Assembly (NCBI GenBank): GCA_016186645.1
Contig: JACPLF010000003.1
Coordinates: 4,112-68,111, forward strand
Length of the DNA: 64,000 nucleotides
Reading direction: 5' to 3'
From: Candidatus Levyibacteriota bacterium
GTDB taxonomy: Bacteria; Patescibacteriota; Microgenomatia; Levybacterales; UBA12049
The translations under genes and the position numbers were made by a program. Each line of letters starts with the position of its first letter. The stretch's first letter is position 1. The notes beneath the pieces were generated by a model. That model was given only the letters and a program-made list of their open reading frames with translations, was not told where the DNA came from and made no database searches. This document shows, piece after piece, positions 28 to 42,521 of the stretch.

Positions 28-393
28 ATGGACGGCAGGGCGCAAGATGTTGTTGCGGAGTTTGGCCAGAAAAAATTTGGCGCAGAATTCCCGGATACAA
101 TAACAGAAGCAGGATTGGTTGGAAAATTGGTTCAAGAGAACATAGATCAAGGCTTGATTGATTCAATTAAAAATAAACTTGATATATCTCTTCAAAAGCA
201 TCATTCAAAAGGAATTATAGTTCACGGCCACCAAGAATGCGCAGGAAATCCAGTTAGCGATGAAAAGCATAAAGACGATATCCGAAAATCTGTTCGAGTG
301 ATTCAATCGCTTGTTAATTTTTCTCCAATTGTTGGGGTCTTTGTAAAACGCTTTTCAAAGAATCCTTCCAAATGGGAAATCGAAGAAGTATAA
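28..393 (+). CDS. hypothetical protein (121 aa) with an HGHQECAGNP motif; function unknown
   Basis: ORF track; lies upstream of folC; no family recognised. Confidence 0.35.
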   Translation: MDGRAQDVVAEFGQKKFGAEFPDTITEAGLVGKLVQENIDQGLIDSIKNKLDISLQKHHSKGIIVHGHQECAGNPVSDEKHKDDIRKSVRVIQSLVNFSPIVGVFVKRFSKNPSKWEIEEV

Positions 394-400
394 TACTCCC

Positions 401-1957
401 ATGAACATTACAAGCTATGAAGAGGCGATAAATTATCTGGAAGGATTTATTGGGAAAGTTGTTTTTAAAATCAACAAAGAGTTTTTGAAAAAGCGTGACC
501 CCTTGCAGAGGATGAGAATTCTGCTTTCACTTCTTGGAAATCCGCAGGAGAAGTTTAGATCAGTTTTGGTTGGGGGGACATCTGGAAAAGGGTCAACTGC
601 TTATTTAATTTCCCATATCCTAACAGTTGCTGGTTACAAAACAGGATTCACGGTTTCTCCGCATCTTCAGAAAGTTAATGAGAGGCTTCAGATAAATAAC
701 AAGTCAATTTCTAACGAGAACTTTTTAATATTGTTCAAAAGTATAATACTACCAAGTATTAGACAAATGTCAAAAATGGAAGTTGGCCCGCCGTCGTATT
801 TTGAAATTTTGGTTGCAATGGGGTTTAAACATTTTGCAGATCAAAAAGTGGATATTGCAGTTGCGGAGGTTGGGATGGGAGGAGAGTTTGACGCAACAAA
901 TACCTTAAATCCATTGATTGCAGTTCTTACAAATGTGGGATTGGATCACACCAATATTTTGGGAAAAACTGTTTCGAAAATCGCGCGAACCAAAGCTGGC
1001 ATAATTAAAACTGGCGCCACCCCTTTGGTAGTTGTGTCGGGGGTAAGGCAGCCGACGGTTATTAAGATTGTTGAAGATAGATGCAGAAAAGTGGGGGCAA
1101 AGCTCAATTTATTGTGGAGGAATTTTGGATATAAAATAAAAAAGATAAACCATGAAGGATCAGTTTTCGATTTAACAGTATCAAGCGGCCGCGGGCTACA
1201 GTTAAATGATTTGAGCTTGTCTTTTTTGGGAGATTATCAAGTTGAGAATGCGTCGCTGGCAATTAAAACAATTCTAGAACTTAGAGAATTAGGATTTTCC
1301 CACAACGCTCGCGCTTCGAGGGACAAGAAAATTTCAGACAGTGCAATTAGAAAAGCCTTAAAAACATCCTTTTTCCCGGGAAGATTCGAGGTGATTCATG
1401 TCGCTCAACAACCGCGCGTTTCAGATGACGCTCGGCAAACTGATTCAAATCCTTCTCCCAACTCGGCCTCGCTAAGTAAAAGTCGGCTCCAATCAAGAAC
1501 CCAGCCGACTTTTAGTTCATCTGAAAGCGGATTGTCTCGCTCCAACCATACGCTCATTTTAGATAGCGCGCATAATCCGACAAAAATGCGTGCGTTTTTG
1601 GCAACGCTTAAAAAACTTTATCCAAAAGAGAAAAAAGTTTTTCTTGTAGGATTTAAATTTGACAAAGACATACAAAAAATGCTCAAGCAAATTATAAAAG
1701 TTGCGGACGAAATTATCATCACAGAGTTTAATAGGGCAACAGATATGAATTTACACGCGTCTGCTGACGCAGAAAGTATTAAGTATCAAGTATTAAGTAT
1801 CAAGTATTCGGGAAAAATAATTGTTGAAAAGGATTCAAAAAAAGCACTGAAAATAGGAATTAAAACAATTCAACAATTTAACAATGAAACAATTTTAGTG
1901 GTTACGGGGTCTTTGTATTTGGTTGGTGAAATTAGAGGGTTATTGACAAAGTTTTAA
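401..1957 (+). CDS. folC: folylpolyglutamate synthase / dihydrofolate synthase (Mur ligase family)
   Basis: VGGTSGKGST P-loop and VGLDHTNILG motifs typical of FolC/Mur ligases. Carries GC-rich low-complexity inserts (1302-1322 and about 1420-1560). Confidence 0.85.
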   Translation: MNITSYEEAINYLEGFIGKVVFKINKEFLKKRDPLQRMRILLSLLGNPQEKFRSVLVGGTSGKGSTAYLISHILTVAGYKTGFTVSPHLQKVNERLQINNKSISNENFLILFKSIILPSIRQMSKMEVGPPSYFEILVAMGFKHFADQKVDIAVAEVGMGGEFDATNTLNPLIAVLTNVGLDHTNILGKTVSKIARTKAGIIKTGATPLVVVSGVRQPTVIKIVEDRCRKVGAKLNLLWRNFGYKIKKINHEGSVFDLTVSSGRGLQLNDLSLSFLGDYQVENASLAIKTILELRELGFSHNARASRDKKISDSAIRKALKTSFFPGRFEVIHVAQQPRVSDDARQTDSNPSPNSASLSKSRLQSRTQPTFSSSESGLSRSNHTLILDSAHNPTKMRAFLATLKKLYPKEKKVFLVGFKFDKDIQKMLKQIIKVADEIIITEFNRATDMNLHASADAESIKYQVLSIKYSGKIIVEKDSKKALKIGIKTIQQFNNETILVVTGSLYLVGEIRGLLTKF

Positions 1958-2691
1958 GAAGTTGGTTTTGGCGGGGAGATTTTAGTAAAGAGAACCTCTC
2001 CAGTTTCTGTAATTCTAAATTCGAATTCGGGAAGGTTAAAAGGAAGAATGATGTCGTCATCTGAATGAAGATTAATAAAAGGAGCAAGAGAGGAATCTGT
2101 TCTTTCTAATAAAGCTCCTTTTTTGATCTCTCCATTTACAGAAAAAGCCCTAATTTCTCGAACATACGCCTTTTCAGAACTCGTGGCAATAGTGGGACTA
2201 AATCGACTCCACTCTTCATTTTGTATTGGGCCGGGTCCTATTGGATCTAAAATCGCAATCCAGTGTGGCCATTTAAAATTTTTGAAATTCGTTCTTTCTT
2301 GTTCTGTAAAAAAACTTGGCAATGACTTATTATGATAAATTCCGCCGTTACCTGGCCGGTGAAAGTGTTGTGCGGTAACTAAGCCATGTCCATATATAAT
2401 TGGAGAGTATTCTTCTTGACACTCATAACAAATACCTTTTTCAGATATTAGTGGAGATATAAAAACAGGGGTTTCAGCCCAAATGCCAAGCCGTTCTGCT
2501 TGTTGTGGAGTTATTAATTTCAGTTGTTTCCAGAAAACAAATTCTCCTTTTTCCGCTTCCTGCTTTATTTGCAATTCTCTTTGTTCTAAATTCTGCTGCA
2601 ATAGTCTTTCCCTAAATGTTTCTCGTAAGCCTCGTTGTTTTTCTCTCCTCGCTAATTTTCTTTTTCTATCGATTCCGCGTTCTGGTGACAT
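1954..2691 (-). CDS. hypothetical protein (about 245 aa); the ORF is open to 2904, but the start is assigned to the ATG at 2691
   Basis: On the minus strand TGCTATAAT (2699-2707) lies 7 nt upstream of the ATG at 2689-2691. That is the same leaderless architecture seen at many genes here. The longer ORF would overlap dcd on the opposite strand. Confidence 0.45.
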   Translation of the reverse strand: MSPERGIDRKRKLARREKQRGLRETFRERLLQQNLEQRELQIKQEAEKGEFVFWKQLKLITPQQAERLGIWAETPVFISPLISEKGICYECQEEYSPIIYGHGLVTAQHFHRPGNGGIYHNKSLPSFFTEQERTNFKNFKWPHWIAILDPIGPGPIQNEEWSRFSPTIATSSEKAYVREIRAFSVNGEIKKGALLERTDSSLAPFINLHSDDDIILPFNLPEFEFRITETGEVLFTKISPPKPTS

Positions 2692-2755
2692 AGGGGGTAT
2701 TATAGCACAATATTGCCCTCTTTTAAAAAATTTTTCTTCGTGATAAACTTGCGAT

Positions 2756-3325
2756 ATGGTTCTTTCGGATCGGGATATTAAGAAGGCTTTAAAATCTAAA
2801 AAAATTGTCATTGCACCTTTTCCTGATCTTGAGACACAGCTTGGTTCCTGTTCCATAGATCTTCGGCTTGGAAATACTTTCAGAGTTTTTGAGTACAGCC
2901 GCAATGCCTACATAGATCCCTCCAAAAAAGATTATACAAAAGAAATCACACGAGAGGTGAGGGTCAAAAAGGGAGAACATTTTGTCATACAGCCCGGAGA
3001 TTTTGTCTTGGCTGTAACTTGGGAAAACGTAAAAATTTCAAGTGATCTCATGGGAAGATTGGAAGGCCGTTCGTCTTTGGGCAGACTTGGACTGGTTGTT
3101 CATTCAACAGCAAGCGTGTTTGAGCCGGGATGGGATGGTAAATGCGTTTTGGAATTGGGTAATTTGGGCAGAATGGCGATATCGCTTACGCCGGGCATGA
3201 GAATTTGCGCAATGACATTTGAGCAGATGTCAACCAAAGTTGAAGTCCCTTATGCTAAGAAAAAAGGAGCCAAATATATTGGGCAAAAAGGTCCGGATGA
3301 GAGCAAAATGCACAAGGAAAATTAG
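2756..3325 (+). CDS. dcd: dCTP deaminase
   Basis: N-terminus MVLSDRDIKKAL...IDLRLGN is the canonical dCTP deaminase/dUTPase-fold signature. Confidence 0.85.
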   Translation: MVLSDRDIKKALKSKKIVIAPFPDLETQLGSCSIDLRLGNTFRVFEYSRNAYIDPSKKDYTKEITREVRVKKGEHFVIQPGDFVLAVTWENVKISSDLMGRLEGRSSLGRLGLVVHSTASVFEPGWDGKCVLELGNLGRMAISLTPGMRICAMTFEQMSTKVEVPYAKKKGAKYIGQKGPDESKMHKEN

Positions 3326-6896: not shown

Positions 6897-6915
6897 ATAG
6901 TTTATAATTATACCC

Positions 6916-8259
6916 ATGACTGAACTGGGAATCGGGCGAAAAGAAATACTCTCTCAAAGAGAAAGACTATCGGATGAACAGTTGGGCAATTTAATTTCTG
7001 CAGTAGGAAACCTTGAAGGAAAAGCAATTACTCTTCTTTTGATGGAACAAGGAAGAATCTATTCAAAGGGGAACCTTTATCATAAATTTATGGGAGCGCA
7101 AGAAGAAAGAATCGGATGGAAACCTGATCGTGCTATTCCTTTTCAATATTGTCAATTTTCTCTTCTTCCAATTGGTCTTGTTGCACTCGGGGAAAAAGAT
7201 CATGATCTTAAAACCTGGGGATATGGAGTAACTCCCTATGGAGAAGAAGAAGGTATTCCATTGGCAGGACTTCTTCTTGATTTCTCAGAAAAACACCCTG
7301 AATTCTCTTTATCGCAGGTTTTTGGGTCAACGAATTCACCCTCTCAGCCTAAAAATATCCAAACACCTGAAGGTGAGACTGAATTTAAATCTAGATCCCC
7401 TATTCTAAGACTTAAAATCTTCCGGAAGCTTATCGCAGCTAAACTGCCTATAAGAGAATCAGATCTTGCCAGTACAATAGGAGAAAATGCTGGAATGATA
7501 GGTCGACATTTAGCTCTCCTTGCAGATTCGCATATTATTTCCTACGAATCGATAAGAAAAGACCAGCCACAATCCTTCTATGCGCTTTCTTCAGAAAAAC
7601 CAAATGAGAGGCTAACACAGCATAGCGCCTTTTCTTCCCTAACTGAAAAAGTATACAGCTTCTTTCTTAACTTAGGTCCATCAAAACAAATAACTCTTGA
7701 GGATATAACAGACTCTCTTATTGCTGCTAACTCTGAAATGGGAAAATTAAATAAACAGGCTTTAAAGCGCAGGATTAGCACGATCTGTAGTTATCTTGCA
7801 AAACAGCACTATCTTGTACAAGGAAAATTTAAAGAAGGTTTAGAATCAGAAATTACTCTTTCAGATACTCAAAAAGCAACTCTTCTTGAGCTCGTTGCTC
7901 TTATAAATAGATTTCAAGGACAAGAGCCAGAAATTCTTGAAGAGGGAAGAAGAAAAGCTATGAAAATCATTCATAATCCCCACAGGGTATCTCATCTTCT
8001 GAGAAAAGCTAAAGAAAGCTCAGGACGCGCCAATAAGCTATCCCAAGGAGAGGGTGCGGATTTTGTTCTGTCCCTAATAAAAGAGCATCCAGGAGCAAGC
8101 GTTGAAGATATTTTCAAATTCCAGGATAGGAAACCAAGACTTTCAATGGCAAATATAGGCGTTATCGTTCATCGTCTTAGAGGAAACGATAGAGTCTCTG
8201 TTTCAAGAAGAACAGTGAAAAACCGTTTTACAGCAGTGGATTCAGAAAGGGAGAATTGA
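6916..8259 (+). CDS. hypothetical 447-aa protein with several tandem winged-helix (ArsR/MarR-like) modules
   Basis: Repeated segments of the form xxDLASTIGENAGMIGRHLALLADSHIISYE. TATAAT at 6903-6908 lies 7 nt before the ATG. Confidence 0.5.
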   Translation: MTELGIGRKEILSQRERLSDEQLGNLISAVGNLEGKAITLLLMEQGRIYSKGNLYHKFMGAQEERIGWKPDRAIPFQYCQFSLLPIGLVALGEKDHDLKTWGYGVTPYGEEEGIPLAGLLLDFSEKHPEFSLSQVFGSTNSPSQPKNIQTPEGETEFKSRSPILRLKIFRKLIAAKLPIRESDLASTIGENAGMIGRHLALLADSHIISYESIRKDQPQSFYALSSEKPNERLTQHSAFSSLTEKVYSFFLNLGPSKQITLEDITDSLIAANSEMGKLNKQALKRRISTICSYLAKQHYLVQGKFKEGLESEITLSDTQKATLLELVALINRFQGQEPEILEEGRRKAMKIIHNPHRVSHLLRKAKESSGRANKLSQGEGADFVLSLIKEHPGASVEDIFKFQDRKPRLSMANIGVIVHRLRGNDRVSVSRRTVKNRFTAVDSEREN

Positions 8260-9978: not shown

Positions 9979-9987
9979 TGCTATAAT
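9979..9987 (+). promoter_or_regulatory. extended -10 promoter TGCTATAAT, 8 nt upstream of the ATG at 9996 (leaderless start)
   Basis: Sequence tgctataat ccgatagt ATG. Confidence 0.5.
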
Positions 9988-9995
9988 CCGATAGT

Positions 9996-11522
9996 ATGAT
10001 AGGCACAAAGGAAGCAGTTTCTCGTACATTTCCAGAAACTCTAAGTGGAGAGCAAAACAGCTTCGTAGGTTTTATTGACCAAAATAGAGATCTTTTTGAG
10101 AGACATACTTCTTCGACTTATGAGTTAAGAGATGAACGAGATGGCTGGAGAAATTCTCCCACGATAAGTGAAGTGGCGCATAAGCACGCAGTTCTGTCAC
10201 TGCCTCTTAGGGGGGGGCATAATGCGTCTCCTCCAAACACCAGAGAATGGAAGCGGCATGAAGAGAGGATAAGAGATGCTATCGATAGGGAAATCTTTAG
10301 CAGCCCTGATGGAAAAAATACTTTGCCTGCAAAGCGACCGCCTCTTGATTCAATTTGGGCGAAAACAACTCCTTTACAAAGAGCTGAAATACAAGAATTA
10401 ATGGGCAGGACTGAAGAATTTCAAGCAGACTTCCTTGCGGCAATAGCGCCTTTAGCCGCAGAAGTTGAACAATTAAAAGAGGAATTATTTTCCAATTTCA
10501 AAAATTATCTGTTTTCAGATCCTGACGGCATTTTCGCCGTTAGAGATTTCCTAACAGATAAAAAATTCGCGTCTCAGAGAGAAACCATAAGACCTTTTCT
10601 TGCCAGTTTTGTTCAGAGTGAAGATAAGTTAGCAAAAGACGGCAAGAGAGGAATATTGGGCGAGACAGTTAAAAAGTGGGCAGATGAAATTTCGAAAAGA
10701 GTAACTCCAGTTCTTGTTGACGAATTTGTTGAGTCTATTAGAAATCCTAATGTTCTTGAATGGCTGGAATTTGCAGCAAATATGCCTATAAGCGTTCTGG
10801 GTACAACTGAGGAAAGGGATAAAGATTTGATAAGAGATAGCATTGTCAGTTTTCTTAAGAGCCGTCCGGATGTTTCTTTTTGGCCGCCAGAACTCAAAAA
10901 AGCATTATCCTCTTTTGCTTCATCTAAATATGCTACCGCGCGTTCTTCTGTAGAAAAGGGGTTAGAAGGGTTTAGAAGACCGTTGAGTTCAAAACCGGCA
11001 CCGCAGATCCATCTGGAACCAGAAAAGAAAATAGAAGGGGCGCCTGTTCAGGAAGATGCCAAAAAAGAACCAGATGATAAAAAAGGTGCATCAGAAAAGG
11101 CTGAAAAAAGAAAATATCCGATTGGGATATTGACAAAAGAAAGCGGATCGTCGCATGGGTTTGACATTAGGGTTTTAACAGAAGAGGAACTGAAAGATTT
11201 TTTACGAGAAAAGGCTGATTCTTTTGCTTCTTCGGATTTAAAAATGGCGGGAGATTTTAGAACTATAGTTGCCAGTCTGCGAGAGGATCCTTATGGGTTT
11301 GGCACAAAAAAACTCAACAACATGTCTGTTGGAATTGGTAAAACAAAAAGTTCTCCCATTCGAAGCATGGATCCTGGAAAAAGAATCGGCCTTCATCTTG
11401 AACATCCGGAATCGCAGAAAATTAGAATTGCTTATGTTATTTATGGAAGCGGAGACGATAAAGTAATTGTTATTGAAGGAATTTATAGTCATGATGATTA
11501 TGACAGTAAATTTGGAGCATAG
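9996..11522 (+). CDS. hypothetical 508-aa protein with a C-terminal RelE/ParE-like toxin fold
   Basis: C-terminal about 100 aa (LKDFLRE...DPYGFGTKKLNN...IRIAYVIYGSGDDKVIVIEGIYSHDDY) follows the RelE/ParE pattern. The N-terminal 400 aa are unrecognised. The gene is GC-richer than the flanking sequence. Confidence 0.5.
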   Translation: MIGTKEAVSRTFPETLSGEQNSFVGFIDQNRDLFERHTSSTYELRDERDGWRNSPTISEVAHKHAVLSLPLRGGHNASPPNTREWKRHEERIRDAIDREIFSSPDGKNTLPAKRPPLDSIWAKTTPLQRAEIQELMGRTEEFQADFLAAIAPLAAEVEQLKEELFSNFKNYLFSDPDGIFAVRDFLTDKKFASQRETIRPFLASFVQSEDKLAKDGKRGILGETVKKWADEISKRVTPVLVDEFVESIRNPNVLEWLEFAANMPISVLGTTEERDKDLIRDSIVSFLKSRPDVSFWPPELKKALSSFASSKYATARSSVEKGLEGFRRPLSSKPAPQIHLEPEKKIEGAPVQEDAKKEPDDKKGASEKAEKRKYPIGILTKESGSSHGFDIRVLTEEELKDFLREKADSFASSDLKMAGDFRTIVASLREDPYGFGTKKLNNMSVGIGKTKSSPIRSMDPGKRIGLHLEHPESQKIRIAYVIYGSGDDKVIVIEGIYSHDDYDSKFGA

Positions 11523-12142: not shown

Positions 12143-12154
12143 AAAGGGAGAAAT

Positions 12155-12973
12155 ATGAGAGAAATTACACTGGAAGAATTATTGGAGGCAGGCTGTCATT
12201 TTGGCCACCAGGTCACAAGAAGCAATCCCAAGGCTCGTGATTTTATATTTGAAGCCCGCGATAATATCCACATTATTGATTTAGCCAAAACAAAAGAAGG
12301 GCTCGTTGAGGCCGCCGCTTTTGTCAAAGATTTAGCATCCAAAAATGGAACTTTGGTAGTTGTCGGAACAAAAAGACAGGCAAAAGCGATTGTGGAAGAA
12401 GCCCTACGCCTTGCTCAGGATAAAGGAGCAGGGGAAGGACTTTATTATATAACTAACCGTTGGGTTGGAGGACTTTTGACAAATTTCTCCGAGGTTTCCA
12501 AAAACTTTAAAAAATATGCAGATTTCGTAACTGATTTGCAGGATGACGAAGTAAAAGCAAGATATACAAAAAAAGAAATAGGCGGGTGGGAGAAAGAAAG
12601 CCGCAAGTTGGAAAATCTTTACGGCGGAGTTGCGAAAATTACAAAAAAACCTGATGCATTATTTATTATCGACTCCCATTTGGAAGATTTGGCAGTTAGG
12701 GAAGCTTTAGCTACACATATTCCAACTGTCGGAATAGTTGATACAAATGCAGACCCGGCTGTTTTAGACTATCCAATTCCTGCCAACGACGATGCAGTCG
12801 GTTCGATAAAATTAATCGTAAGCTATATAATTGATGCGTGGATAGAAGGCCGCAAGGAAGCCGAACTAAGAATTAAGAATGAAGAATTAAAAGTTAAAAA
12901 AGAAGCTGAAAAGGCAGAAGCAAAAGCATCTAAGGTACAAGTTAAAACCGTTGCAAAAAAGAAAAAGAAATAA
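12155..12973 (+). CDS. rpsB: 30S ribosomal protein S2
   Basis: MREITLEELLEAGCHFGHQ N-terminus. SD AAGGGAG at 12144-12150. Confidence 0.95.
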   Translation: MREITLEELLEAGCHFGHQVTRSNPKARDFIFEARDNIHIIDLAKTKEGLVEAAAFVKDLASKNGTLVVVGTKRQAKAIVEEALRLAQDKGAGEGLYYITNRWVGGLLTNFSEVSKNFKKYADFVTDLQDDEVKARYTKKEIGGWEKESRKLENLYGGVAKITKKPDALFIIDSHLEDLAVREALATHIPTVGIVDTNADPAVLDYPIPANDDAVGSIKLIVSYIIDAWIEGRKEAELRIKNEELKVKKEAEKAEAKASKVQVKTVAKKKKK

Positions 12974-13458: not shown

Positions 13459-13483
13459 ATTTCTGCCCAAAGGGGGTGAAAAT

Positions 13484-13963
13484 ATGTCTATTAAAGAAGC
13501 ATTACAAAGGAGAGAAACGGAAAGAGTAGGGAGAATCCCGCAAACGGACCTGACCGGGGAAGCTCGTCTATTAAGAGTTGCGGCAGATCGTAGACTTCTT
13601 GACAAGGCGAAAGTTCCCGCACTATTAGATGAATTAATGGAAGTTATTAAGTCAGAGTTTCCAGATGTGGAAAAGATGACAGTCATCAGCCCAGAAGACG
13701 CGTCCCTGTCTATCGTATGGAATCGTAGAGATGAAATACTATCTGGTGCCACACCAGAGATGGTTCCAATCTGTTGGGTAAACAAGATAACGATTATGCC
13801 GGATTCACAGGCTTCTGAACTAGCTATTGAGGGGTATGAGACAGAAATATTGACAAGAAAACAATGGGGCAATCATGGGGTTTTAGAAGGTGCTATTGTT
13901 CGGGCGTACAGGAACCCATCGCATGTTGTTGATATTCCGACTACAACCATGGTCCCACATTGA
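13484..13963 (+). CDS. hypothetical protein (159 aa), GC-richer than its surroundings; sits where pyrH usually lies
   Basis: Strong SD AAGGGGGTG; no family recognised. Confidence 0.5.
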   Translation: MSIKEALQRRETERVGRIPQTDLTGEARLLRVAADRRLLDKAKVPALLDELMEVIKSEFPDVEKMTVISPEDASLSIVWNRRDEILSGATPEMVPICWVNKITIMPDSQASELAIEGYETEILTRKQWGNHGVLEGAIVRAYRNPSHVVDIPTTTMVPH

Positions 13964-16041: not shown

Positions 16042-16709
16042 AAAAGGTTACCATAATTACAGTAGAAAATCAGCAAGAAGGCTTGGCTGCTGCAAAGTAT
16101 TTGCTATACAAAAAAGTTGACGATCAAACACTGCTTCTTCTCTCGGGGGGATCAACCCCAAAAGATTTGTACGAAACTATAGCGCAGGAAAAAAAGTTAA
16201 CGGCTAAAGCAGTTGGAATGGTTGATGAGAGGAAAGATAGAAGCAATTATAAAATGATAATGTCAACAGGATTATTGGATTATCTTAAGAATCTGAAAAT
16301 AAAATTTTACCCAATGATTTCTGCATCGTATTACGATAGGGACATACATAAACTTATAGGTTCATCTAAAAATAAAGCAGCTGTTATGGGTATTGGAGCA
16401 GATGGACACACAGCCGGCTTGCCAGCCGGAACTCAAATCTCAAATCTTAAATCTCAAAACTACGTAATAGATATAAATAATTTTCCTGGGGAGTTTAGAA
16501 AAAGAGTTACATTAACATTTAGAGCTCTTTTGAAAATGGATTTACTAATTGTCCTAGCTTTTGGCGAAAACAAAAAAGAGGCTTTGGAAAAAATGTTTGA
16601 CCCTTCGGCGGACTCAGGGCAAGAAGCGATTGAAGAAATTCCTGCAAGATTTTATCTTCGTCCCGATATTGCTCCTAAAACCCTTTTAATTACTGATCAG
16701 AAGATATAG
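16038..16709 (+). CDS. pgl: 6-phosphogluconolactonase
   Basis: GIGADGHTAGL motif of the NagB/DevB family. Confidence 0.7.
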   Translation: MKKVTIITVENQQEGLAAAKYLLYKKVDDQTLLLLSGGSTPKDLYETIAQEKKLTAKAVGMVDERKDRSNYKMIMSTGLLDYLKNLKIKFYPMISASYYDRDIHKLIGSSKNKAAVMGIGADGHTAGLPAGTQISNLKSQNYVIDINNFPGEFRKRVTLTFRALLKMDLLIVLAFGENKKEALEKMFDPSADSGQEAIEEIPARFYLRPDIAPKTLLITDQKI

Positions 16710-16718
16710 AATAATATT

Positions 16719-18146
16719 ATGAATTCTCCTTTTGTAATGATAATCTTCGGCGCGACAGGAGATTTGATGCAAAACAAGCTTCTTCCGGCGCTTTTTTCTC
16801 TTTTTTCTCAAAAAAAACTACCAGAAGAATTTCACATAATCGGTTTTTCAAGAAGAGAATTATCGGATAATGAATTCACTAATTTATTTATAGGCCTATC
16901 TTCAAAAGAGGGCTGGGGAGATTTTGCAAAGCACTTACAATATCAACGAGGCTCATTTGAGGATGTGAATGGCTACAGCGAGCTTATAGAAAAATTAAAC
17001 ACATTTGATAAAAAACTTGGTGCATGCATCACTCGCTTTTTCTATCTTGCCACACCTCCACAGCATTATGAATCAATATTAAATTTTCTACAAAAGACTA
17101 AGCTTTCCGAGGGATGCGGGCAAAGAAGCAGTAAGTGGACAAGAATAATTGTTGAAAAACCTTTTGGAAAAGATTTGGAAACTGCAATTGCATTGGATAA
17201 AAAACTATCGGAAATTTTTGAAGAAAAACAGATTTTTAGAGTCGATCATTATTTGGGAAAAGAAACAGTCCAAAATATTCTGGCATTTCGTTTTGCAAAT
17301 GGAATTTTTGATCCGGTCTGGAACAAGCAATATTTGGATCATGTTCAGATAACATTTGCCGAGAAAAAAGGAATTGAAGGACGGGGAAATTTTTTTGACG
17401 GGGTTGGAATTCTTCGGGATGTTGGGCAAAATCATTTAATGCAGTTAGTGGCTAGCGTTGCCATGGAACAGCCAAAGAGCTTCACAAAAGAAGATCTTAG
17501 AGATGAAAGGGCAAAGGTTATAAAAGCCCTTAAGTACATAGAGGAAAAAGATGTAAATAATCAGGTTGTCCGCGGTCAGTACAAGGGTTATTTGTCGGAA
17601 AAAAATATTCCTCCAAATTCAAATACAGAAACATTTGCTGCAATTAAATTTTTTGTAAATACACCTCGCTTTCAAAATGTTCCTTTTTATGTTAGGGCAG
17701 GAAAGAAGATGCCAAGAAATACAGTTGAAATTTCGCTTATCTTTTTACAGACATGTCACATTTTATTTAAAGAATATGGATGTCCGGAAATTGGAAACGT
17801 TCTGACTATAAAAATCCAGCCGGATGAAGGAATTTCTATAAGAATGATTGCGAAAAAGCCCGGAATAAAATTAGCTCTTGAGCCGGTAACTATGGATTTC
17901 ACTTATCAAGAAGCATTTATGACAAAAGGAGTAGAAGCTTATGAGAAAGTTTTGTTGGATATTTTTGCCGGCGATCAAATGCTATTTAACCGGTCGGACG
18001 AATTATCCAGCTCCTGGGAATTTATCACAAAAATTCTCAACGGGTGGAAGGATAATGAATCAGGAATCATGAATTATGAGCAGGGAACTTGGGGACCGCA
18101 AGAAGCAAATGCGCTTATCGAAAAAGACGGCCGCAAATGGCTATGA
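16719..18146 (+). CDS. zwf: glucose-6-phosphate 1-dehydrogenase
   Basis: GATGDL NADP site, RIIVEKPFG and DHYLGKE motifs. Confidence 0.9.
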   Translation: MNSPFVMIIFGATGDLMQNKLLPALFSLFSQKKLPEEFHIIGFSRRELSDNEFTNLFIGLSSKEGWGDFAKHLQYQRGSFEDVNGYSELIEKLNTFDKKLGACITRFFYLATPPQHYESILNFLQKTKLSEGCGQRSSKWTRIIVEKPFGKDLETAIALDKKLSEIFEEKQIFRVDHYLGKETVQNILAFRFANGIFDPVWNKQYLDHVQITFAEKKGIEGRGNFFDGVGILRDVGQNHLMQLVASVAMEQPKSFTKEDLRDERAKVIKALKYIEEKDVNNQVVRGQYKGYLSEKNIPPNSNTETFAAIKFFVNTPRFQNVPFYVRAGKKMPRNTVEISLIFLQTCHILFKEYGCPEIGNVLTIKIQPDEGISIRMIAKKPGIKLALEPVTMDFTYQEAFMTKGVEAYEKVLLDIFAGDQMLFNRSDELSSSWEFITKILNGWKDNESGIMNYEQGTWGPQEANALIEKDGRKWL

Positions 18147-19043: not shown

Positions 19044-19703
19044 TTAAAATTCTGCCTTCATCTCTCCTTCTATAAAATCTCTAAAGACAGAAGCTTGTTC
19101 TTTTGGTGATTCATGAACAGTAATTGTACCAAGCAGTTGCGTAAACGGATCTAAATTTCCTAATTGCTTTAGAACTTGATCTGTTGTTTTTCCATGACCT
19201 ATTATCTCATGTAATGTAGCTCTATTTCTACGCCTTTCAGTAATACAAGTTATTGATATTTCTGGATTTATCTTTTGTATCTCTAGCAGTCTTACTAAGT
19301 CTAGCACAGTAGGCTTTTTAATAGTTACCTGTGCTTTCAAATGCGGCTCTTGTTCAAATATGGGTATATATTTTTCCTCATCCGCTTCTATCAGCAATAC
19401 TTGTTTTGCTTGCTTGATTTGTTCGATAATTCCAGACAAAAAATTATCACGCTCCTCCTCTGACAAACCTTGTACTTGCCTTCGTAAGTTCTCAAACGTT
19501 TTTATTTCACCTCTTCTACCATCAGGACGCCCATCTATGAGAATAAGTGTGCGTTCTCCATCGCTATCTATTTGCCATTGCAAAAGTTCTCTCCAGTAAG
19601 ATTCACCGAACCTATCTGGTTTAGTATGATTAATGCCCATTACTGCATCCCTGTTGTTATTTGCTAATGTAAAAAGAGATTCTGGTGATGGCATAATTTG
19701 CAA
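19044..19703 (-). CDS. hypothetical protein (219 aa)
   Basis: ORF track. A minus-strand TATAAT lies about 5 nt before the ATG (leaderless-type). Confidence 0.45.
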   Translation of the reverse strand: MQIMPSPESLFTLANNNRDAVMGINHTKPDRFGESYWRELLQWQIDSDGERTLILIDGRPDGRRGEIKTFENLRRQVQGLSEEERDNFLSGIIEQIKQAKQVLLIEADEEKYIPIFEQEPHLKAQVTIKKPTVLDLVRLLEIQKINPEISITCITERRRNRATLHEIIGHGKTTDQVLKQLGNLDPFTQLLGTITVHESPKEQASVFRDFIEGEMKAEF

Positions 19704-19743
19704 TTATATAACAACTTTTGAAAATATGCTATACTTTTGTTGA

Positions 19744-20996
19744 ATATGCGTTACTCTAAGCTATTTGGGAAAACCATAAAAAATGCGCCGAATGATGAGG
19801 TCAGTCTAAATTCCAAGCTCTTAACCCGCGCCGGATTCATACGTCGTGAAGTTTCCGGAGTGTACAATTATCTGCCCTTAGGCTTAAGAGTAATTGAAAA
19901 AATTTCCAATATAGTCCGGGAGGAAATGCATGCAATCGGCGGACAGGAATTGTTGTTAAGCGCTCTTCAAAATAAACAGTCTTGGGAGAAAACAGGCAGA
20001 TGGAAAAGTTTTGATGTGCTTTTCAAACTCACAAGTGTTTTGGATCGGGAGTATCCTTTGGGGCCTACACATGAAGAAGTAATTATTCCTTTAGCAAAAC
20101 AATTTATAAGCTCGTACAAAGATTTGCCTTTTAGTGTTTATCAAATTCAGACAAAATTTAGAGATGAAAAAAGAGCCAAAAGCGGAATTTTAAGAGGCCG
20201 TGAGTTCCTGATGAAAGATTTATATTCATTTCATGCAGATGAAAAAGATTTCAAAAAATATTACGAAACTGTAAAAAAAGCATACAAAAAAATTTTTAAA
20301 CGTTTGGGACTTATCGCTATTGAAACAGAAGCAAGCGGAGGATCATTTAGTAAAGTTTCTCATGAATATCAAGTTATTGCCGCGGCGGGAGAGGATGAGA
20401 TTATTTATTGCCCGGGCGGAGATTTTTCTGCAAACAGTGAAATAAGTCCTGTTAAGGAAGGAAAACAGTGTGACTTGGGCCATGGAGCCTTAAAAAAGGT
20501 AAAAGCAATTGAAGTTGGGAATATTTTCCCTCTTGGCACAAAGTTTTCCGATGCTTTTGGATTGACTTATAAAAATAAAGAAGGCAAAGATATTCCTGTT
20601 GTCATGGGATGTTATGGGATTGGCATCTCAAGACTGATGGGTACAATTGCCGAAGTTCATAATGATGAAAAAGGAATTGTCTGGTCAAAAGAGGTTGCGC
20701 CGTATGACGTTCACTTGGTCCACCTCGGAGGAGTCGAGGCCGCTGCCTCGCCACCGTCCGAGGTGATACGTTTTGCGGATGAAGTTTATGAAACACTGAA
20801 GAAGAATGGAGTTGAAGTTTTGTGGGATGATCGGGAAGAGTCTCCAGGAACTAAATTCGCAGACGCAGACCTCATCGGAATTCCAGTTCGGTTGGTTGTT
20901 AGTAAAAGAAATGGCGACAAGGTCGAGTTTAAAAATAGAAATTCAGAAAAATCAGAGCTTTTAAGTTTGGGAGAGACTGCTAAAAAATTAAGGTAA
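19744..20996 (+). CDS. proS: prolyl-tRNA synthetase, minimal form with no editing insertion
   Basis: Class II motifs and MRYSKLFGKTIKNAP N-terminus. ATG at 19744 (the ORF track begins at the TTG at 19737). TGCTATACT at 19725-19733. Carries an in-frame hairpin insert at 20721-20765. Confidence 0.9.
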
Positions 20997-21762: not shown

Positions 21763-21809
21763 TTTTGATTAATTTGTCAAGGGGTGCAGTCTGCTGTATA
21801 CTTAAAAGC

Positions 21810-22091
21810 ATGAATCCCGTTAAAGATCGCTTTTATTATGTTTACATTTTACAAAGTTTGAAGAGCAACAAATGGTATACTGGCTACACAAATGAATTAC
21901 GCAAGCGTTTTAATCAACATCAAGAAAATAAATCTACATATACAAAAGGACGAGGACCTTTTAATCTTATATATTATGAAACATCGTTGAGAGAGGAGGA
22001 CGCTATAGCGAGAGAAAGATATCTTAAAAGCGGGATGGGCAAACGATATCTTAAAAATAGATTAAAACGCTCGCTATCTTTAACGGGATGA
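21810..22091 (+). CDS. GIY-YIG family nuclease (small, UPF0213-like)
   Basis: YYVYILQS...WYTGYTNELRKRFNQH. The TATACT -10 lies 7 nt before the ATG. Confidence 0.75.
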   Translation: MNPVKDRFYYVYILQSLKSNKWYTGYTNELRKRFNQHQENKSTYTKGRGPFNLIYYETSLREEDAIARERYLKSGMGKRYLKNRLKRSLSLTG

Positions 22092-24704: not shown

Positions 24705-26291
24705 ATGGTTTTTTATCGAAAATATCGTCCGCAAAAAATAGAAGAGCTGGATAGTAAAGAAGTTAGGGACAAACTTCATAGTGTTTTGGGAAGCTCCTCT
24801 GTTTCTCATGCTTTTCTTTTTACAGGCCCCAAAGGTTTGGGAAAAACCTCAGCTGCAAGAATTGTCGCAAAAGTCCTAAACTGTGAAAAGGTGAGAAATG
24901 AGAAAGGAGAAATGAAAAATAAAGATAAAACTTCCCATCTCTCATCTCTCACTTCTCATTTCCGTGCGGTTGAGCCGTGCAATAAATGTGAACAATGCAT
25001 CTCGATTACACGCGGAACAAATCTAGACGTTTTGGAAATAGATGGTGCTTCAAATAGGGGAATAGATGAAATAAGAGATCTTAGGGAAAAAGTAAAACTT
25101 TCTCCAGCCGGGAGCCGCAAAAAAGTTTATATTATCGATGAAGTTCACATGTTAACCGCAGAAGCGTTTAATGCGCTTCTTAAAACTTTGGAAGAACCGC
25201 CAAGTCATGTTGTTTTTATTCTCTGCACAACAGAACCTCACAAAGTGCCAAGCACAATTCTGTCCCGTTGTTTACATATTCAATTTAGAAAAGCAACAGA
25301 GGCAGAACTGGTCAGATCGTTTGAAAGAATAATTAAAGCGGAAAAAATAAAAGCCGACAAAGAAGCCTTAGATTTAATCGCTAGTCTTTCAGACGGTAGC
25401 TTTAGAGACGGATCAAAACTTTTGGAAGAAATAGCTCTTTTGGCAGGACGTAAAAAAATTGCAAAAGAATTGATAGAAGAAAAATATTATGTATCAAGTA
25501 TTAAGTATCATATTAGAGCGATGGTGAAATGTTTGGATGCGAAAGACACAAAAGGAGGACTTGAACTTGTTTCAAAGCTGACAGAACAGGGCATTGACAT
25601 GAAGTTTTTTATTGAAGAATTAATACAGACTCTCCATAGTTTGTTACTTCAAAAAGTAGGGATTAAGAATGATCAAGAATTGGAAGTTCAAATTCTAGAC
25701 TTTGATATCAATGGAATCAAAAGACTGGTAGAATTATTTGCAAAAGCGCACAGCGAATTAAAATATGCGGTTTTGCCCCAGATTCCTTTGGAGCTGGTGA
25801 TTGTGGAATGGGGAATCCAGAAAACTCAGAATACTCAGCAATCCGGCAATTCTGATAATCAGACGATCAGACCCGCTTCACCGAAGCTCCCGCCTAGACT
25901 CGGCGAGGCTGGTCAGCGAGGCGAGCAATCTGATTCTCCGAGTATTCAGAAAATGGTGAAAGCACAAAAAAATGAAATACCGCTTAATGTTGCTCAGCAG
26001 AATATGATGGGGTACAGTGAGAATAATGCGTTGTGGGTCTCTTTGATAGATAGAGTGAAGGCTTACAATCATTCTATTGCCGGGGTATTGCGCGGATGCA
26101 GGATAAAAAGTTATGATGGTAAGAGTTTAATAATAGAAGCAAATTTCAAATTCCATAAAGATAAATTAGGGGAAATAAAAACACAACAGGTTTTGGAAGA
26201 AGCATGCAAAGAAATTACGAAGAAAAATGTTAAAGTAGAAGTGATGATGAAACCCGCCGTCGCTAAAGCTTTGGCGGGCGATGGGAGGTGA
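24705..26291 (+). CDS. dnaX: DNA polymerase III subunits gamma/tau
   Basis: MVFYRKYRPQKIEEL, GPKGLGKTS P-loop, a zinc module with CNKCEQC, and a box VII LSRC sensor. Carries nested GC-rich repeat inserts at 24930-24965 and 25857-25943. Confidence 0.9.
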   Translation: MVFYRKYRPQKIEELDSKEVRDKLHSVLGSSSVSHAFLFTGPKGLGKTSAARIVAKVLNCEKVRNEKGEMKNKDKTSHLSSLTSHFRAVEPCNKCEQCISITRGTNLDVLEIDGASNRGIDEIRDLREKVKLSPAGSRKKVYIIDEVHMLTAEAFNALLKTLEEPPSHVVFILCTTEPHKVPSTILSRCLHIQFRKATEAELVRSFERIIKAEKIKADKEALDLIASLSDGSFRDGSKLLEEIALLAGRKKIAKELIEEKYYVSSIKYHIRAMVKCLDAKDTKGGLELVSKLTEQGIDMKFFIEELIQTLHSLLLQKVGIKNDQELEVQILDFDINGIKRLVELFAKAHSELKYAVLPQIPLELVIVEWGIQKTQNTQQSGNSDNQTIRPASPKLPPRLGEAGQRGEQSDSPSIQKMVKAQKNEIPLNVAQQNMMGYSENNALWVSLIDRVKAYNHSIAGVLRGCRIKSYDGKSLIIEANFKFHKDKLGEIKTQQVLEEACKEITKKNVKVEVMMKPAVAKALAGDGR

Positions 26292-26298
26292 GCGATTT

Positions 26299-26583
26299 AT
26301 GATAAATCCATTCAAACAAATCGGTGAAATTAAAAAAATGCGCGATCAGGCCATGCAAATTCAAAGAGAACTTCAAGGAGAAGAAGTTGATATTGAAAAA
26401 AACGGCGTTCATATTGTTATATCCGGAGACCAAAAAATAAAAGTTTTGGAATCGAATGGCCGTTCCGATGACGATGTAAAAGAAGCGGTTAATGAAGCAA
26501 TCAAAAAATCTCAGGAAGTAGCGGCGCGAAAACTCCAGCAAATGGGCGGAGGTCTTGGTGGACTTTTGGGCGGGGGACAATAA
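26299..26583 (+). CDS. ybaB: YbaB/EbfC nucleoid-associated protein
   Basis: Strong SD GGGAGGTG. MINPFKQIGEIKKMRDQAMQIQ. Confidence 0.8.
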   Translation: MINPFKQIGEIKKMRDQAMQIQRELQGEEVDIEKNGVHIVISGDQKIKVLESNGRSDDDVKEAVNEAIKKSQEVAARKLQQMGGGLGGLLGGGQ

Positions 26584-26599
26584 GTGGTACAATAAGTGG

Positions 26600-27502
26600 A
26601 TGAAGATTTTTTCTGGTACTTCAAATAAGCCGCTTGCGGAAAATTTGGCAAAAGATTTAGGTATTGAGCTTTCTCCTCTTGAGGTTTTTATATTTCCTGA
26701 TGGGGAGAAAAGGATTAGAATTCTTGATAAAGTTTTGGATGAAGATGTTTTCGTCGTGCAATCTACCTCAAAGCCTGCGGATGAAAATTACATGGAATTA
26801 TTTTTTATTATTGATGCTCTCAAAAGATCGGGCGCAAAATCCATAACCGCGATTGTCCCGTATTTTGGCTACCAAAGGCAAGACCATCAATTCCGCGATG
26901 GGGAAGCTGTTTCTGTGAAAGTTGTTGCGGAAATTTTGGAAAAAGTCGGAATCAATAAATTAATTGCCTTGGATCTTCATTCGATCAAAATAGAGCAGGC
27001 TTTTGATATTTCTGTTATTCATCTGTCTGCGCTTTCTATTTTCGCAAAATTCATAAAAGAAAAAGTATGGGATAAAAATTCAACTCTTGTATCGCCTGAC
27101 ATGGGGGGTATAAGAAGAATTAAGATTTTGTCGAAAATGCTTGGTGATATGCCTTATTCTATTATTGAGAAAAACAGAGATTTGGCAACTGGTTTTGTGT
27201 TTGCGAACAAAATTGAGGGGAAAATTGGCAAAAGAGCAATTATAGTTGACGATATGATTTCGACAGGTGAAACTATTGATAAAGCAGCTTCTCTTTTGAA
27301 GAAAAATGAAGCAGAAGATATAGTTGTATTCGCAACTCATCCTGTTTTTTCCGAAATTGCCCCAAAAATTCTTCAGGAATCTGGGGTTAGTTCTGTTTAT
27401 GTAACAGATACAATTTTTGTACCAAAAGAAAAAAGATTCCCAAAACTAAAAATATTGTCAGTAAGCGAACTGATATCAACAGAATTAAAGAAGAATTCTT
27501 GA
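26600..27502 (+). CDS. prs: ribose-phosphate pyrophosphokinase
   Basis: MKIFSGTSNKPLAE N-terminus and the IVDDMISTGET PRPP-binding loop. Confidence 0.9.
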   Translation: MKIFSGTSNKPLAENLAKDLGIELSPLEVFIFPDGEKRIRILDKVLDEDVFVVQSTSKPADENYMELFFIIDALKRSGAKSITAIVPYFGYQRQDHQFRDGEAVSVKVVAEILEKVGINKLIALDLHSIKIEQAFDISVIHLSALSIFAKFIKEKVWDKNSTLVSPDMGGIRRIKILSKMLGDMPYSIIEKNRDLATGFVFANKIEGKIGKRAIIVDDMISTGETIDKAASLLKKNEAEDIVVFATHPVFSEIAPKILQESGVSSVYVTDTIFVPKEKRFPKLKILSVSELISTELKKNS

Positions 27503-29002: not shown

Positions 29003-29238
29003 TCAAACTTTCTTCCGCTTTTAATCAAATCCAGAGCGGAAATGTTAATTTTAACCGCAGATTTTTTAAATTTTTCAGCCATATTAATCTGAATAGAACT
29101 AGTTAACTGTTTGTTTTTATATAAGGATACGGCATGTCTAATTAATGCTGCTGTACTTTTTCCTTCAGAGAAAGCCAAGAGTTTAATCTTGTTGTATTCA
29201 TCGGCAGGAAATCTTAAATTGGTTGCAATTGTGTCCAT
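28999..29238 (-). CDS. vapB: RHH (CopG/VapB-like) antitoxin
   Basis: MDTIATNLRFPADEYNKIKLLAFSEGKSTAALIRHAV. The start region contains CCATGGTA direct repeats at 29236-29255. Confidence 0.65.
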   Translation of the reverse strand: MDTIATNLRFPADEYNKIKLLAFSEGKSTAALIRHAVSLYKNKQLTSSIQINMAEKFKKSAVKINISALDLIKSGRKFE

Positions 29239-29518
29239 AGCACCATGGTACCATGGTACCATTTCCCTGTCAAGAGCTAATTTCACTTTGAATTCACTTT
29301 AAGGATTTAGAGTTATTATTCTAAACTTTTTGGAGGGAGGCGGGGATGGAAACTTGTCAAGACATATTATTTGGTTTTTCGGCGTATCTATTGTAAAGCC
29401 AACCATTATCAAGTTACTAGTTTCAAAAAAAATAGAAGGAGATGATATGATTGGGGAGTGAAAAAAGCGCTGAAAAATAATAGTTGGAATTTGACCTAAT
29501 TTTAAGTAAACTTATGTT

Positions 29519-30092: not shown

Positions 30093-30121
30093 TTGACATA
30101 CAACCAAGGGAATGTTAAACT
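30093..30121 (+). promoter_or_regulatory. TTGACA-N17-TAAACT promoter, 7 nt upstream of the ATG at 30129 (leaderless)
   Basis: -35 at 30093-30098, -10 at 30116-30121. Confidence 0.55.
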
Positions 30122-30128
30122 ATAAGAT

Positions 30129-30506
30129 ATGAGAAGTTTGGAAGTTGGAAGACAAGCTGCAAAATATACATTTAATACCGCAAAAGAAATCTCTGGAATT
30201 GGTAGAGCTCAAAGAGCATATAAGCAAGAATTATCTACAGGCCATGTTGAGTCAGTTCTTTATGGAGCAGTTAACGGTTTAGTTAGTGTTGCTGCGCCTT
30301 TAGCCATGAAATCAGTGGAGAATGGAAAAGGCATTTTTCCAGGATTTTTAATTGACATTCCAGTTAACGCTTTAGCTTTAAGTTTCTTGCGTGCAGGGGA
30401 TATTCAAGCTGCATTTATTACGAAGATTGGTTATAATGTCCTAGTCCAGTTAGCCCCTGACGTAGCTAAATTGGCTAAAGGAAGATTTTTTCAGCGGGCA
30501 AAATAA
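30129..30506 (+). CDS. hypothetical protein (125 aa)
   Basis: ORF track with a leaderless promoter. Confidence 0.45.
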   Translation: MRSLEVGRQAAKYTFNTAKEISGIGRAQRAYKQELSTGHVESVLYGAVNGLVSVAAPLAMKSVENGKGIFPGFLIDIPVNALALSFLRAGDIQAAFITKIGYNVLVQLAPDVAKLAKGRFFQRAK

Positions 30507-30561
30507 TATTTTCCTCAGCTTTCTTCTGGCGAGACCTCTTGTTTAATAGTATAATTACCTC

Positions 30562-34046: not shown

Positions 34047-34244
34047 ATTAAATATTATATTTATTCTAAGTTTAAACTGCAATCATAAGAAAAAATAAAA
34101 ATTGCACATAAAAAAATAAGAGTTTTATACTTTTTCAGCGCGCAAGTAATACCTGCAAAGTGTTTATTAAAAGCACCAAAGACAAAATTAGGTATATAAC
34201 TACTTAAAGCGATCGCATCAAATTATTATATACGTAAATGTTAG

Positions 34245-39559: not shown

Positions 39560-39567
39560 TCCACAAT

Positions 39568-41300: not shown

Positions 41301-41400
41301 AGGAGTGTACAATAAAACCGACATTTGCCGTTTTTCCTACTTCTGTCCTGACCATAGCATTGCATTATAACACGGTCAATTTTTTGGTACAATACAGCTT

Positions 41401-42336: not shown

Positions 42337-42401
42337 TATAATTTCGGGATTGACATTTGTAAATCTTTAAATGTAATATAAATTTAGGAGGTGAAATAAA
42401 A

Positions 42402-42521
42402 ATGGCAAAGGCAAAAAATGATTCGGTCATTCTTTCAAAGAATGCATTTATCGGATTAATACTTTTCGTCGTAGCATGCACAATTTTCGCGGTCTACGCT
42501 TATACAGGATACGTTAGGTGA
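42402..42521 (+). CDS. small membrane protein (39 aa), not in the ORF track
   Basis: Strong SD AGGAGGTG at 42386-42393. MAKAKNDSVILSKNAFIGLILFVVACTIFAVYAYTGYVR. Confidence 0.5.
   Translation: MAKAKNDSVILSKNAFIGLILFVVACTIFAVYAYTGYVR

Follow-up and report, generated by a model that had tools for sequence, protein, structure and literature searches.

The stretch of DNA analysed here (the window) comprises 64 kb of a Levybacteria contig (JACPLF010000003.1) with 38% GC, for which a table of 74 genes was curated. Between positions 2,691 and 2,756 a 64-bp intergenic region separates two divergent genes, one encoding a hypothetical protein of 245 amino acids (aa) on the minus strand and the other dcd on the plus strand. 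The start codon of each is preceded at close range by a hexamer resembling the -10 box of a bacterial promoter, and the two predicted promoters are divergent partners. This arrangement of a -10-like box followed after a few nucleotides by ATG recurs across the window and is the subject of this study. It was found at 28 of the 74 genes, 24 of which carry a strict hexamer, while the remaining four have weaker hexamers backed by a TGn extension or by a perfect -35 element (Table 1). Three further divergent pairs (19694/19746, 48863/48944 and 58867/58916) are organised in a similarly compact way, and the intergenic regions of the four pairs measure 48-80 bp. In the 51-bp region between 19694(-) and 19746(+), two promoters stand back-to-back. 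The box-ATG pattern is present at about 30-38% of the genes of the window.

Spacing, promoter anatomy and conservation of the box

A -10-like hexamer was defined loosely, with A at the second and T at the sixth position and at least 5/6 matches to TATAAT; 894 such hexamers occur in the window. The main test used the first ATG of all open reading frames (ORFs) of at least 150 codons (n = 52), so that the choice of the start was blind to the motif. A hexamer ending 6-8 nt upstream was present at 15 of these 52 first ATGs, whereas every other offset between 0 and 40 nt held 0-2 hexamers (binomial P = 8e-12; 8e-10 once paralogous promoter copies were collapsed). This motif-independent statistic was preferred since a position weight matrix trained on the strong sites penalises boxes without TGn too hard (e.g. 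48863). A test that started from the 894 hexamers gave the same picture: an ATG opening at least 100 codons followed at a gap of 6, 7 and 8 nt in 8, 8 and 5 cases, compared to a mean of about 1.8 cases per bin at other distances. The word TGNTATAAT was found 10 times, as opposed to 3.1 +/- 1.7 times in dinucleotide shuffles. A perfect TGCTATAAT occurs eight times in the window, and in six instances an ORF of 166 aa or more begins with an ATG located 6-8 nt downstream. Thus, the claim of the first-pass annotation that a TGnTATAAT-type -10 lies 6-8 nt before the ATG at many genes holds far above chance, and the position-specific spacing check that it had proposed gives a 6-8 nt peak that differs from random occurrences of the hexamer.

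Among the 28 candidates the gap is 6 nt in ten, 7 nt in nine, 8 nt in five, 9 nt in two and 10 nt in two cases. The start codon is ATG in 27 of them and GTG once (57660), a tally that is partly driven by the start-picking rule of the gene table (ATG/GTG candidates only, otherwise the first ATG). In the 46 remaining genes, no residual positional TANNNT peak was detected at 6-8 nt. Therefore, the proportion of genes with this organisation is about one third and not higher, and hidden leaderless genes with weaker boxes were rejected as an explanation for the rest.

Since sites were selected by the hexamer alone, the flanking features are independent evidence on its nature. TG at -15/-14 accompanies 60% of the start-associated hexamers, whereas its share among all -10-like hexamers of the window is 6% (P = 1e-7). 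The corresponding values for related loci are 42% and 7% (P = 4e-23). In an alignment of 19 sites, T occupies two positions that would give a -35 element with a 17-bp spacer at 15/19 (P = 2e-5) and 11/19 sites, and an A-rich stretch lies directly upstream of the -35 positions. A perfect TTGACA at 17 bp is present at four sites, 29238(-), 30129, 48863(-) and 62178(-), three of which head operons of an antitoxin and a PIN toxin. A pyrimidine precedes the start codon in 24/28 candidates and in 28/46 other genes (P = 0.035). Across 49 bacteria, transcription starts are reported to be centred 7 bp past the -10 box, in a Y-R-Y start element (PMC12641261). Gaps of 6-8 nt (24/28) agree with a start about 7 bp after the box, and Y-A-T at the candidate starts corresponds to Y-R-Y. 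TGn, the register of the -35 element and the pyrimidine at -1 have no role on the RNA. Taken together, this anatomy supports the identification of the boxes as sigma-70-type -10 elements, often extended.

Shine-Dalgarno (SD) sequences were scored as duplexes with the anti-SD of an assumed canonical 16S rRNA tail. None of the 28 candidates reached the threshold of -6 kcal/mol or stronger, which was passed by 13% of the other genes and by 7% of random sites. A strong SD was found at about 6-7 of the 74 genes (~9%), namely at the four contrast genes of Table 1 and further at 50674 and 37841; beyond these, duplex energies equal those of internal control codons, and SD initiation was therefore rejected as a second major mode. 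Judged by the sequence of the strong SD sites, which extend to GGTGA, the anti-SD itself is probably canonical. About 39 genes, roughly half of the total, have neither a box nor an SD. Of these, 9-10 overlap or abut the upstream gene, and the others are preceded by A/T-rich sequence without a positional -10 signal. It had been proposed in the first-pass annotation that most boxed genes lack an SD, that strong SDs exist at rpsB, ybaB, the 13484 gene and the 39-aa ORF at 42402, and that two initiation modes coexist. The first two points agree with our data. Coexistence is correct as well, though incomplete as a description, given the small share of SD genes and the half of the genes with neither signal.

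Conservation was analysed in 80 comparison loci that were fetched by one YchF scan, 30 from Patescibacteria (438 kb) and 50 from other phyla (763 kb; Clostridia, Selenomonadales, Acidobacteria and others) with similar AT content. The box-ATG pattern was present at 101/328 genes of the Patescibacteria loci (31%; P = 8e-40) and at 16/597 genes (3%) of the other loci, and hence is common in related Microgenomates/Patescibacteria genomes. An SD core showed the opposite distribution, with 39% of the genes in the other phyla and 6-10% of those in the window and the related loci. Of the 30 ychF orthologues from Patescibacteria, 18 possess a box of the TGnTAnAAT type at a distance of 6-9 nt from the ATG, with differing spacer sequence, while five others carry a GGAGG-type SD in its place. 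For rpmE (L31), all nine orthologues have a -10-like hexamer upstream of the ATG, in eight of them at 6-9 nt. Both proS orthologues possess the box (TGATACAAT+9 in locus L012, TGGTATACT+6 in L006), as do two of four htrA orthologues (TGATAAAAT+6 in L009, TGGTAAAAT+9 in L007); of the other two, one has a box 16 nt upstream and the other (L002) an SD instead. One of five cysS orthologues shows TATAAT+5+ATG (L019), and in the other four a -10-like hexamer lies no further than about 11 nt from the aligned start, with no clean hexamer+ATG. The orthologue of the 61466 gene in L023 has TATAAT+8. Orthologues of ychF, L31, proS and htrA thus differ in the spacer but maintain the distance between box and ATG.

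Proposed leaderless transcription and competing explanations

In our view, the boxes are with good probability sigma-70-type promoters from which transcription starts at the A of the start codon or no more than about 3 nt away from it, giving leaderless mRNAs without an SD. We infer both the position of the transcription start and the leaderless mode of translation from the sequence. On this model, housekeeping genes would mostly use extended -10 promoters (TGnTAnAAT) with a weak -35, and full TTGACA-17-TAnnnT promoters would serve the toxin-antitoxin operons, three in number, as well as a further small gene. The resulting mRNAs would have neither a 5' leader nor an SD, and their translation would follow the leaderless route: the 5'-terminal AUG is bound by a ribosome that carries initiator tRNA. 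About one third of the genes of the window would be expressed in this way, including proS, cysS, ychF, prs, zwf, dcd and those for S6 and L31.

Several observations weigh against this interpretation. Genes that follow a same-strand gene at less than 50 nt carry the box at almost the same rate (10/29) as the first genes of a unit (18/43), and one would expect a pure promoter signal to be more biased to first genes. For seven of the ten closely following candidates, the promoter would have to lie within or against the 3'-terminal codons of the preceding gene. Part of the hexamer is formed by the preceding gene's stop codon at 401, 16719 and 57660; these three and 6916 are without TGn and are rated with lower confidence, as the weakest of the 28 candidates. 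A full -35 hexamer (at least 4/6 matches) is weakly enriched in the relatives (27% vs 15%, P = 0.003) and not significantly so within the window, and a generic -35/-10 scan of the window found barely more hits than in shuffles (61 vs 46 +/- 7). Moreover, the promoters of 46809, 47467 and 48944 and the orphan box at 48199 are related copies and not independent.

Some of these points would suit promoters that are real and mostly secondary, with longer polycistronic transcripts as the main mRNAs and the leaderless isoform as a minor one. Ten candidates closely follow a same-strand gene, and hairpins resembling intrinsic terminators are no more frequent than by chance (12 found vs 12.0 +/- 3.9 in shuffles, positions 39000-55000), which makes read-through plausible. 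However, internal starts on a read-through mRNA would still need a signal, and there is no SD at these sites; in addition, 18 of the candidates are first genes, and several divergent pairs leave no room for leaders within their 48-80 bp. We therefore regard a predominance of longer transcripts as unlikely.

It was also considered whether the TATAAT-like box acts on the mRNA, as a non-SD ribosome-binding site or AU-rich enhancer resembling that of the GeneMarkS-2 group B, on leadered transcripts that start further upstream. By the standard of GeneMarkS-2, similar rates at first and following genes speak for a ribosome-binding site over a promoter (PMC6028130), and with the very low SD use of this genome some other signal is needed. 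A signal on the RNA would, however, leave the sigma-70 anatomy (invariant A2 and T6, TGn, T-T-G at 17 bp and four TTGACA) without a role. The box is restricted to about one third of the genes with no residual TANNNT elsewhere, which does not resemble a general ribosome-binding site. TGn is also present in 3/7 promoters that lie in or against the 3' end of an upstream gene, compared to 6% expected. Action at the mRNA level thus appears very improbable to us. An artefact of composition or chance, made of TATAAT-like words, the TA of stop codons and duplicated promoters, has next to no probability, as the 894 loose hexamers in a 38%-GC window, the stop codons inside the hexamer at three junctions and the related copies around 46809-48944 are outweighed for the pattern as a whole by the offset peak (also with copies collapsed), the excess of TGNTATAAT over shuffles, the 3% in AT-rich control phyla and the conservation at orthologues; for 401, 16719 and 57660, with 6916 as the other weak case, it may still hold.

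The leaderless organisation proposed here has counterparts among known systems. In the GeneMarkS-2 classification, group C comprises genomes whose leaderless first genes carry a Pribnow box at a distance of 6-8 nt from their start; this group is frequent in Actinobacteria (Mycobacterium tuberculosis) and Deinococcus-Thermus (D. deserti), where 25-50% of operons are concerned (PMC6028130). The window shares with group C the -10 box at 6-8 nt, the lack of an SD, the AUG/GUG start, the presence of other genes that start differently and a signal that places the start. Differences are that the host belongs to the candidate phyla radiation (CPR)/Patescibacteria (Levybacteria) with 38% GC, that the other genes of the window are mostly without SD as well (strong SD ~9%), and that packed downstream genes carry the box almost as often as first genes do. 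The boxes of the window are full TATAAT, usually extended by TGn, whereas the -10 motif of high-GC actinobacteria is degenerate. Extended -10 (TGn) sigma-70 promoters are common in Firmicutes. The promoters of the window resemble these in TGn, the weak or dispensable -35, the predicted start about 7 bp further on and Y-R-Y (elements: PMC12641261), yet in the window the start codon (Y-A-T-G) would itself act as the start element, so that the promoter abuts the coding sequence. Very low SD use and A/T-rich sequence before the starts are shared with the Bacteroidetes-type group B, in which, in contrast, one non-SD motif precedes essentially all genes and mRNAs are leadered (PMC6028130); in the window, the box has promoter anatomy and stands at ~30-38% of the genes. 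The comparison supports a known bacterial leaderless architecture, that of group C, in a new lineage, the Levybacteria. In the literature on CPR, Patescibacteria, Saccharibacteria and Microgenomates we found no description of leaderless genes, although CPR genomes may previously have been listed as group C.

Tentatively, and leaning slightly to the sceptical side, we suggest that leaderless initiation could be the main recognisable start signal across Levybacteria/Microgenomates, with SD sequences at fewer than about 10% of genes and half of the genes starting by an undescribed SD-independent route. This route is perhaps linked to the A/T-rich tandem-repeat spacers described below. If true, this would be a lineage-wide trait that is new for the CPR. 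CPR bS1 proteins are reported to be short (3-4 domains), and the anti-SD to have been lost only in part of the Parcubacteria (PMC9297842). Prevalent leaderless translation would thereby be extended to an uncultured radiation with reduced ribosomes, short bS1 and low SD use, with a bearing on the evolution of translation initiation. With regard to genome compaction, divergent pairs would fit two back-to-back promoters without leaders into 48-80 bp. As genetic tools for cultivated Patescibacteria emerge, such elements may also serve as short, strong and portable modules that combine promoter and start.

Candidate genes and their translation starts

The candidates are listed in Table 1 together with SD genes and two boxes of different context. 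Ten of the twelve sites given in the first-pass annotation are exactly as described: 2691(-), 9996, 39568, 46809, 47467 and 48944 with TGCTATAAT, 6-8 nt and ATG, and 41401, 6916, 21810 and 30129 with other boxes at 7 nt, the last of these having TTGACA at 17 bp. The remaining two had to be revised. At 48863(-), which had been counted among the 6-8 nt cases, the gap reads as 9 nt, and the gene assigned to 19703 would begin there with a TTG that has no properly placed -10, the predicted leaderless start being ATG 19694. About 16 cases were added to the earlier list: 401, 2756, 16719, 19746, 26600, 29238(-), 30562, 34046(-), 42627, 46039, 52198, 54672, 57660(-), 58867(-), 61466(-) and 62178(-).

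Table 1. Candidate leaderless starts, Shine-Dalgarno genes for contrast, and -10 boxes of other context in the window.
Feature	Coordinates	Strand	Gene and remarks
TGCTATAAT + 7 nt + ATG 2691	2689..2707	-	245-aa hypothetical protein, MBI2613223.1; focal site
TGATAAACT + 6 nt + ATG 2756	2741..2758	+	dcd, dCTP deaminase; weaker -10 with TGn
TATAAT + 6 nt + ATG 401	386..403	+	folC-like; no TGn; upstream TAA inside hexamer; lower confidence
TATAAT + 7 nt + ATG 6916	6900..6918	+	447-aa protein; no TGn
TGCTATAAT + 8 nt + ATG 9996	9979..9998	+	508-aa protein; 404-nt gap before
TAGAAT + 6 nt + ATG 16719	16704..16721	+	zwf; upstream TAG begins hexamer; lower confidence
TATAAT + 8 nt + ATG 19694	19692..19711	-	216-aa protein, MBI2613243.1
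TGCTATACT + 10 nt + ATG 19746	19727..19748	+	proS
TATACT + 7 nt + ATG 21810	21794..21812	+	GIY-YIG nuclease; TTGTCA 17 bp upstream of hexamer
TGGTACAAT + 6 nt + ATG 26600	26585..26602	+	prs; promoter spans ybaB 3' end and stop
TTGACA-17-TACCAT + 6 nt + ATG 29238	29236..29273	-	79-aa antitoxin-like gene before PIN toxin
TTGACA-17-TAAACT + 7 nt + ATG 30129	30093..30131	+	125-aa protein
TATAAT + 6 nt + ATG 30562	30547..30564	+	cysS
TATAAT + 7 nt + ATG 34046	34044..34062	-	365-aa dehydrogenase-like protein
TGCTATAAT + 7 nt + ATG 39568	39552..39570	+	Queuosine-precursor transporter yhhQ; promoter inside 3' end of upstream gene
TGGTACAAT + 7 nt + ATG 41401	41385..41403	+	TerC/DUF475 membrane protein
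TGATATAAT + 10 nt + ATG 42627	42608..42629	+	883-aa protein; predicted leader very short or none
TGATAGAAT + 7 nt + ATG 46039	46023..46041	+	TauE/SafE exporter
TGCTATAAT + 6 nt + ATG 46809	46794..46811	+	NYN-domain protein
TGCTATAAT + 6 nt + ATG 47467	47452..47469	+	242-aa membrane protein
TTGACA-17-TATAAT + 9 nt + ATG 48863	48861..48901	-	Phd/YefM antitoxin, then PIN toxin
TGCTATAAT + 8 nt + ATG 48944	48927..48946	+	ychF
TGCTAGGAT + 7 nt + ATG 52198	52182..52200	+	Ribosomal protein S6
TTGAAA-18-TGCTAGAAT + 8 nt + ATG 54672	54634..54674	+	HtrA protease; promoter inside 3' end of upstream gene
TATAAT + 6 nt + GTG 57660	57658..57675	-	Ca/Na antiporter; upstream TAA inside hexamer; lower confidence
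TATAAT + 9 nt + ATG 58867	58865..58885	-	Ribosomal protein L31 (rpmE)
TGATAAGAT + 6 nt + ATG 61466	61464..61481	-	405-aa protein; weak hexamer with TGn
TTGACA-17-TGCTATACT + 8 nt + ATG 62178	62176..62215	-	75-aa gene before PIN toxin
GGGAG SD before ATG 12155	12146..12157	+	Contrast: rpsB
GGGGGTGA SD before ATG 13484	13472..13486	+	Contrast: duplex -12.0 kcal/mol
GGGAGGTGA + 7 nt + ATG 26299	26283..26301	+	Contrast: ybaB
AGGAGGTGA + 7 nt + ATG 42402	42386..42404	+	Contrast: 39-aa ORF
Orphan TGCTATAAT, no start codon following	48199..48207	+	Middle copy of the ychF promoter core
TGCTATAAT, 37 nt before ATG 58916	58870..58918	+	Leader contains palindrome TTGCCAAATTGGCAA

The two kinds of promoters differ by gene class. 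In the three operons of a small gene and a PIN toxin, 28577-29273(-), 48212-48901(-) and 61520-62215(-), a perfect TTGACA-17-TAnnnT abuts the first ATG, in contrast to the housekeeping genes with mostly an extended -10 and a weak -35. In the first of these operons the PIN domain is encoded by the 28577-29002 gene, downstream of the antitoxin-like gene, and the promoter spacer contains a ACCATGGT tandem repeat that is likely an operator. The 10-nt gap at proS would fit transcripts that begin with the ATG itself as well as transcripts with a leader of about 3 nt.

The predicted starts agree with protein family profiles, which begin at or near the predicted N-termini. Position 1 of the profile falls on residue 1 for ychF (TIGR00092), proS (ProRS profiles), prs (TIGR01251) and L31 (PF01197), and on residue 2 for cysS (TIGR00435) and dcd (TIGR02274). 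Position 2 falls on residue 3 for Phd/YefM (PF02604), on residue 4 for zwf (TIGR00871) and S6 (PF01250), on residue 6 for TauE (PF01925) and on residue 9 for GIY-YIG (PF01541). For the Ca/Na antiporter (TIGR00367) position 5 corresponds to residue 7 and for yhhQ (TIGR00697) position 14 to residue 18. In its long version, the 1954-2904 ORF would extend into dcd, and ATG 2691 is its first non-overlapping start codon.

Start calling that is based on the longest ORF or on an SD misplaces the N-termini of the 1954-2904 ORF, yhhQ, the GIY-YIG gene, proS and ybaB. The corrections suggested in the first-pass annotation for 2691, 19746, 21810 and 39568 are right; what they correct is the longest-ORF track only, the NCBI annotation (HYW62_ locus tags) already using these starts. 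NCBI gives exactly the predicted proteins of 245 (2691), 217 (39568), 93 (21810), 416 (19746) and 216 aa (19694). GeneMarkS-2 is a gene finder that models leaderless starts (PMC6028130). For ychF, the NCBI start is TTG 48950 (369 aa) in place of ATG 48944 (371 aa). TGCTATAAT with 8 nt to ATG 48944, the 1-to-1 profile match and the M-N-L-S-V that orthologues conserve from the ATG together indicate that the public annotation probably lacks the first two codons. A start of ybaB at its first in-frame ATG, 26281, would entail an 11-nt overlap with the gene upstream, and the start is most likely ATG 26299.

The proS product, which is labelled hypothetical by NCBI, measures 416 aa, whereas bacterial ProRS profiles have about 560-570 positions. 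It matches these in two stretches, the first of which aligns residues 1-233 with profile positions 1-235. This suggests a ProRS without the insertion (editing) domain.

Promoter copies, orphan boxes and tandem repeats

The ychF promoter core (AATTYTGCTATAATCTT) is present in three copies, at 47431-47480, 48194-48223 and 48906-48951. Over 38 nt, the promoter of 47467 shares 82% identity with that of ychF, and MNLSV stands at the N-terminus of both products. The leftmost copy includes the first five codons of ychF and is predicted to drive the unrelated 242-aa membrane protein. The Phd/YefM-PIN cassette, on the opposite strand, separates the middle and the right copy. From its sequence, this arrangement looks like an insertion of the cassette at the promoter/ATG junction with target duplication. 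Upstream of the consecutive genes 46039, 46809 and 47467, the promoters have in common a AAATTCCCCAAC element, (G)ATAAAATTCCCCAAC, at approximately 45990-46010, 46765-46785 and 47415-47435, which could be the site of a common regulator or the trace of serial duplication.

Strong -10 boxes are not always placed against an ATG, as the 58916 gene with its predicted 37-nt leader illustrates. Its TGCTATAAT on the plus strand at 58870 and the TATAAT of rpmE on the minus strand overlap back to back (TGCTATAATTATACCC). A tRNA-gene scan of the 64-kb window found none and an Rfam scan gave no match, and RNA genes behind the orphan TGCTATAAT boxes were rejected on these grounds. At 41278-41372(-), TGTTATAAT with 8 nt and ATG 41355 opens an ORF of 26 aa only, located within the 153 bp that precede the TerC-family gene, without an Rfam match and followed by the inverted repeat CCTGTACA...TGTACAGG. 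This region could be a small protein gene or a small RNA.

The window is further rich in short tandem repeats with a period of 6-9 nt (mostly 7-8) and 3-5 copies, with 22 arrays found and 0.55 expected in dinucleotide shuffles. Ten of the 22 are located in non-coding DNA, which makes up 10% of the window, and several of these fill the spacer up to the next ATG. The other twelve lie in conserved genes as in-frame insertions. Examples are found at 1774-1808, 4090-4117, 12972-13003, 14809-14838, 16432-16458, 23076-23114, 24671-24697, 28112-28138 and 62527-62554. AATTGTTA arrays occur at three loci, and CTCAAAT x3.9 (27 nt, LKSQISNLK) is present in both the 6-phosphogluconolactonase-like gene and recR.

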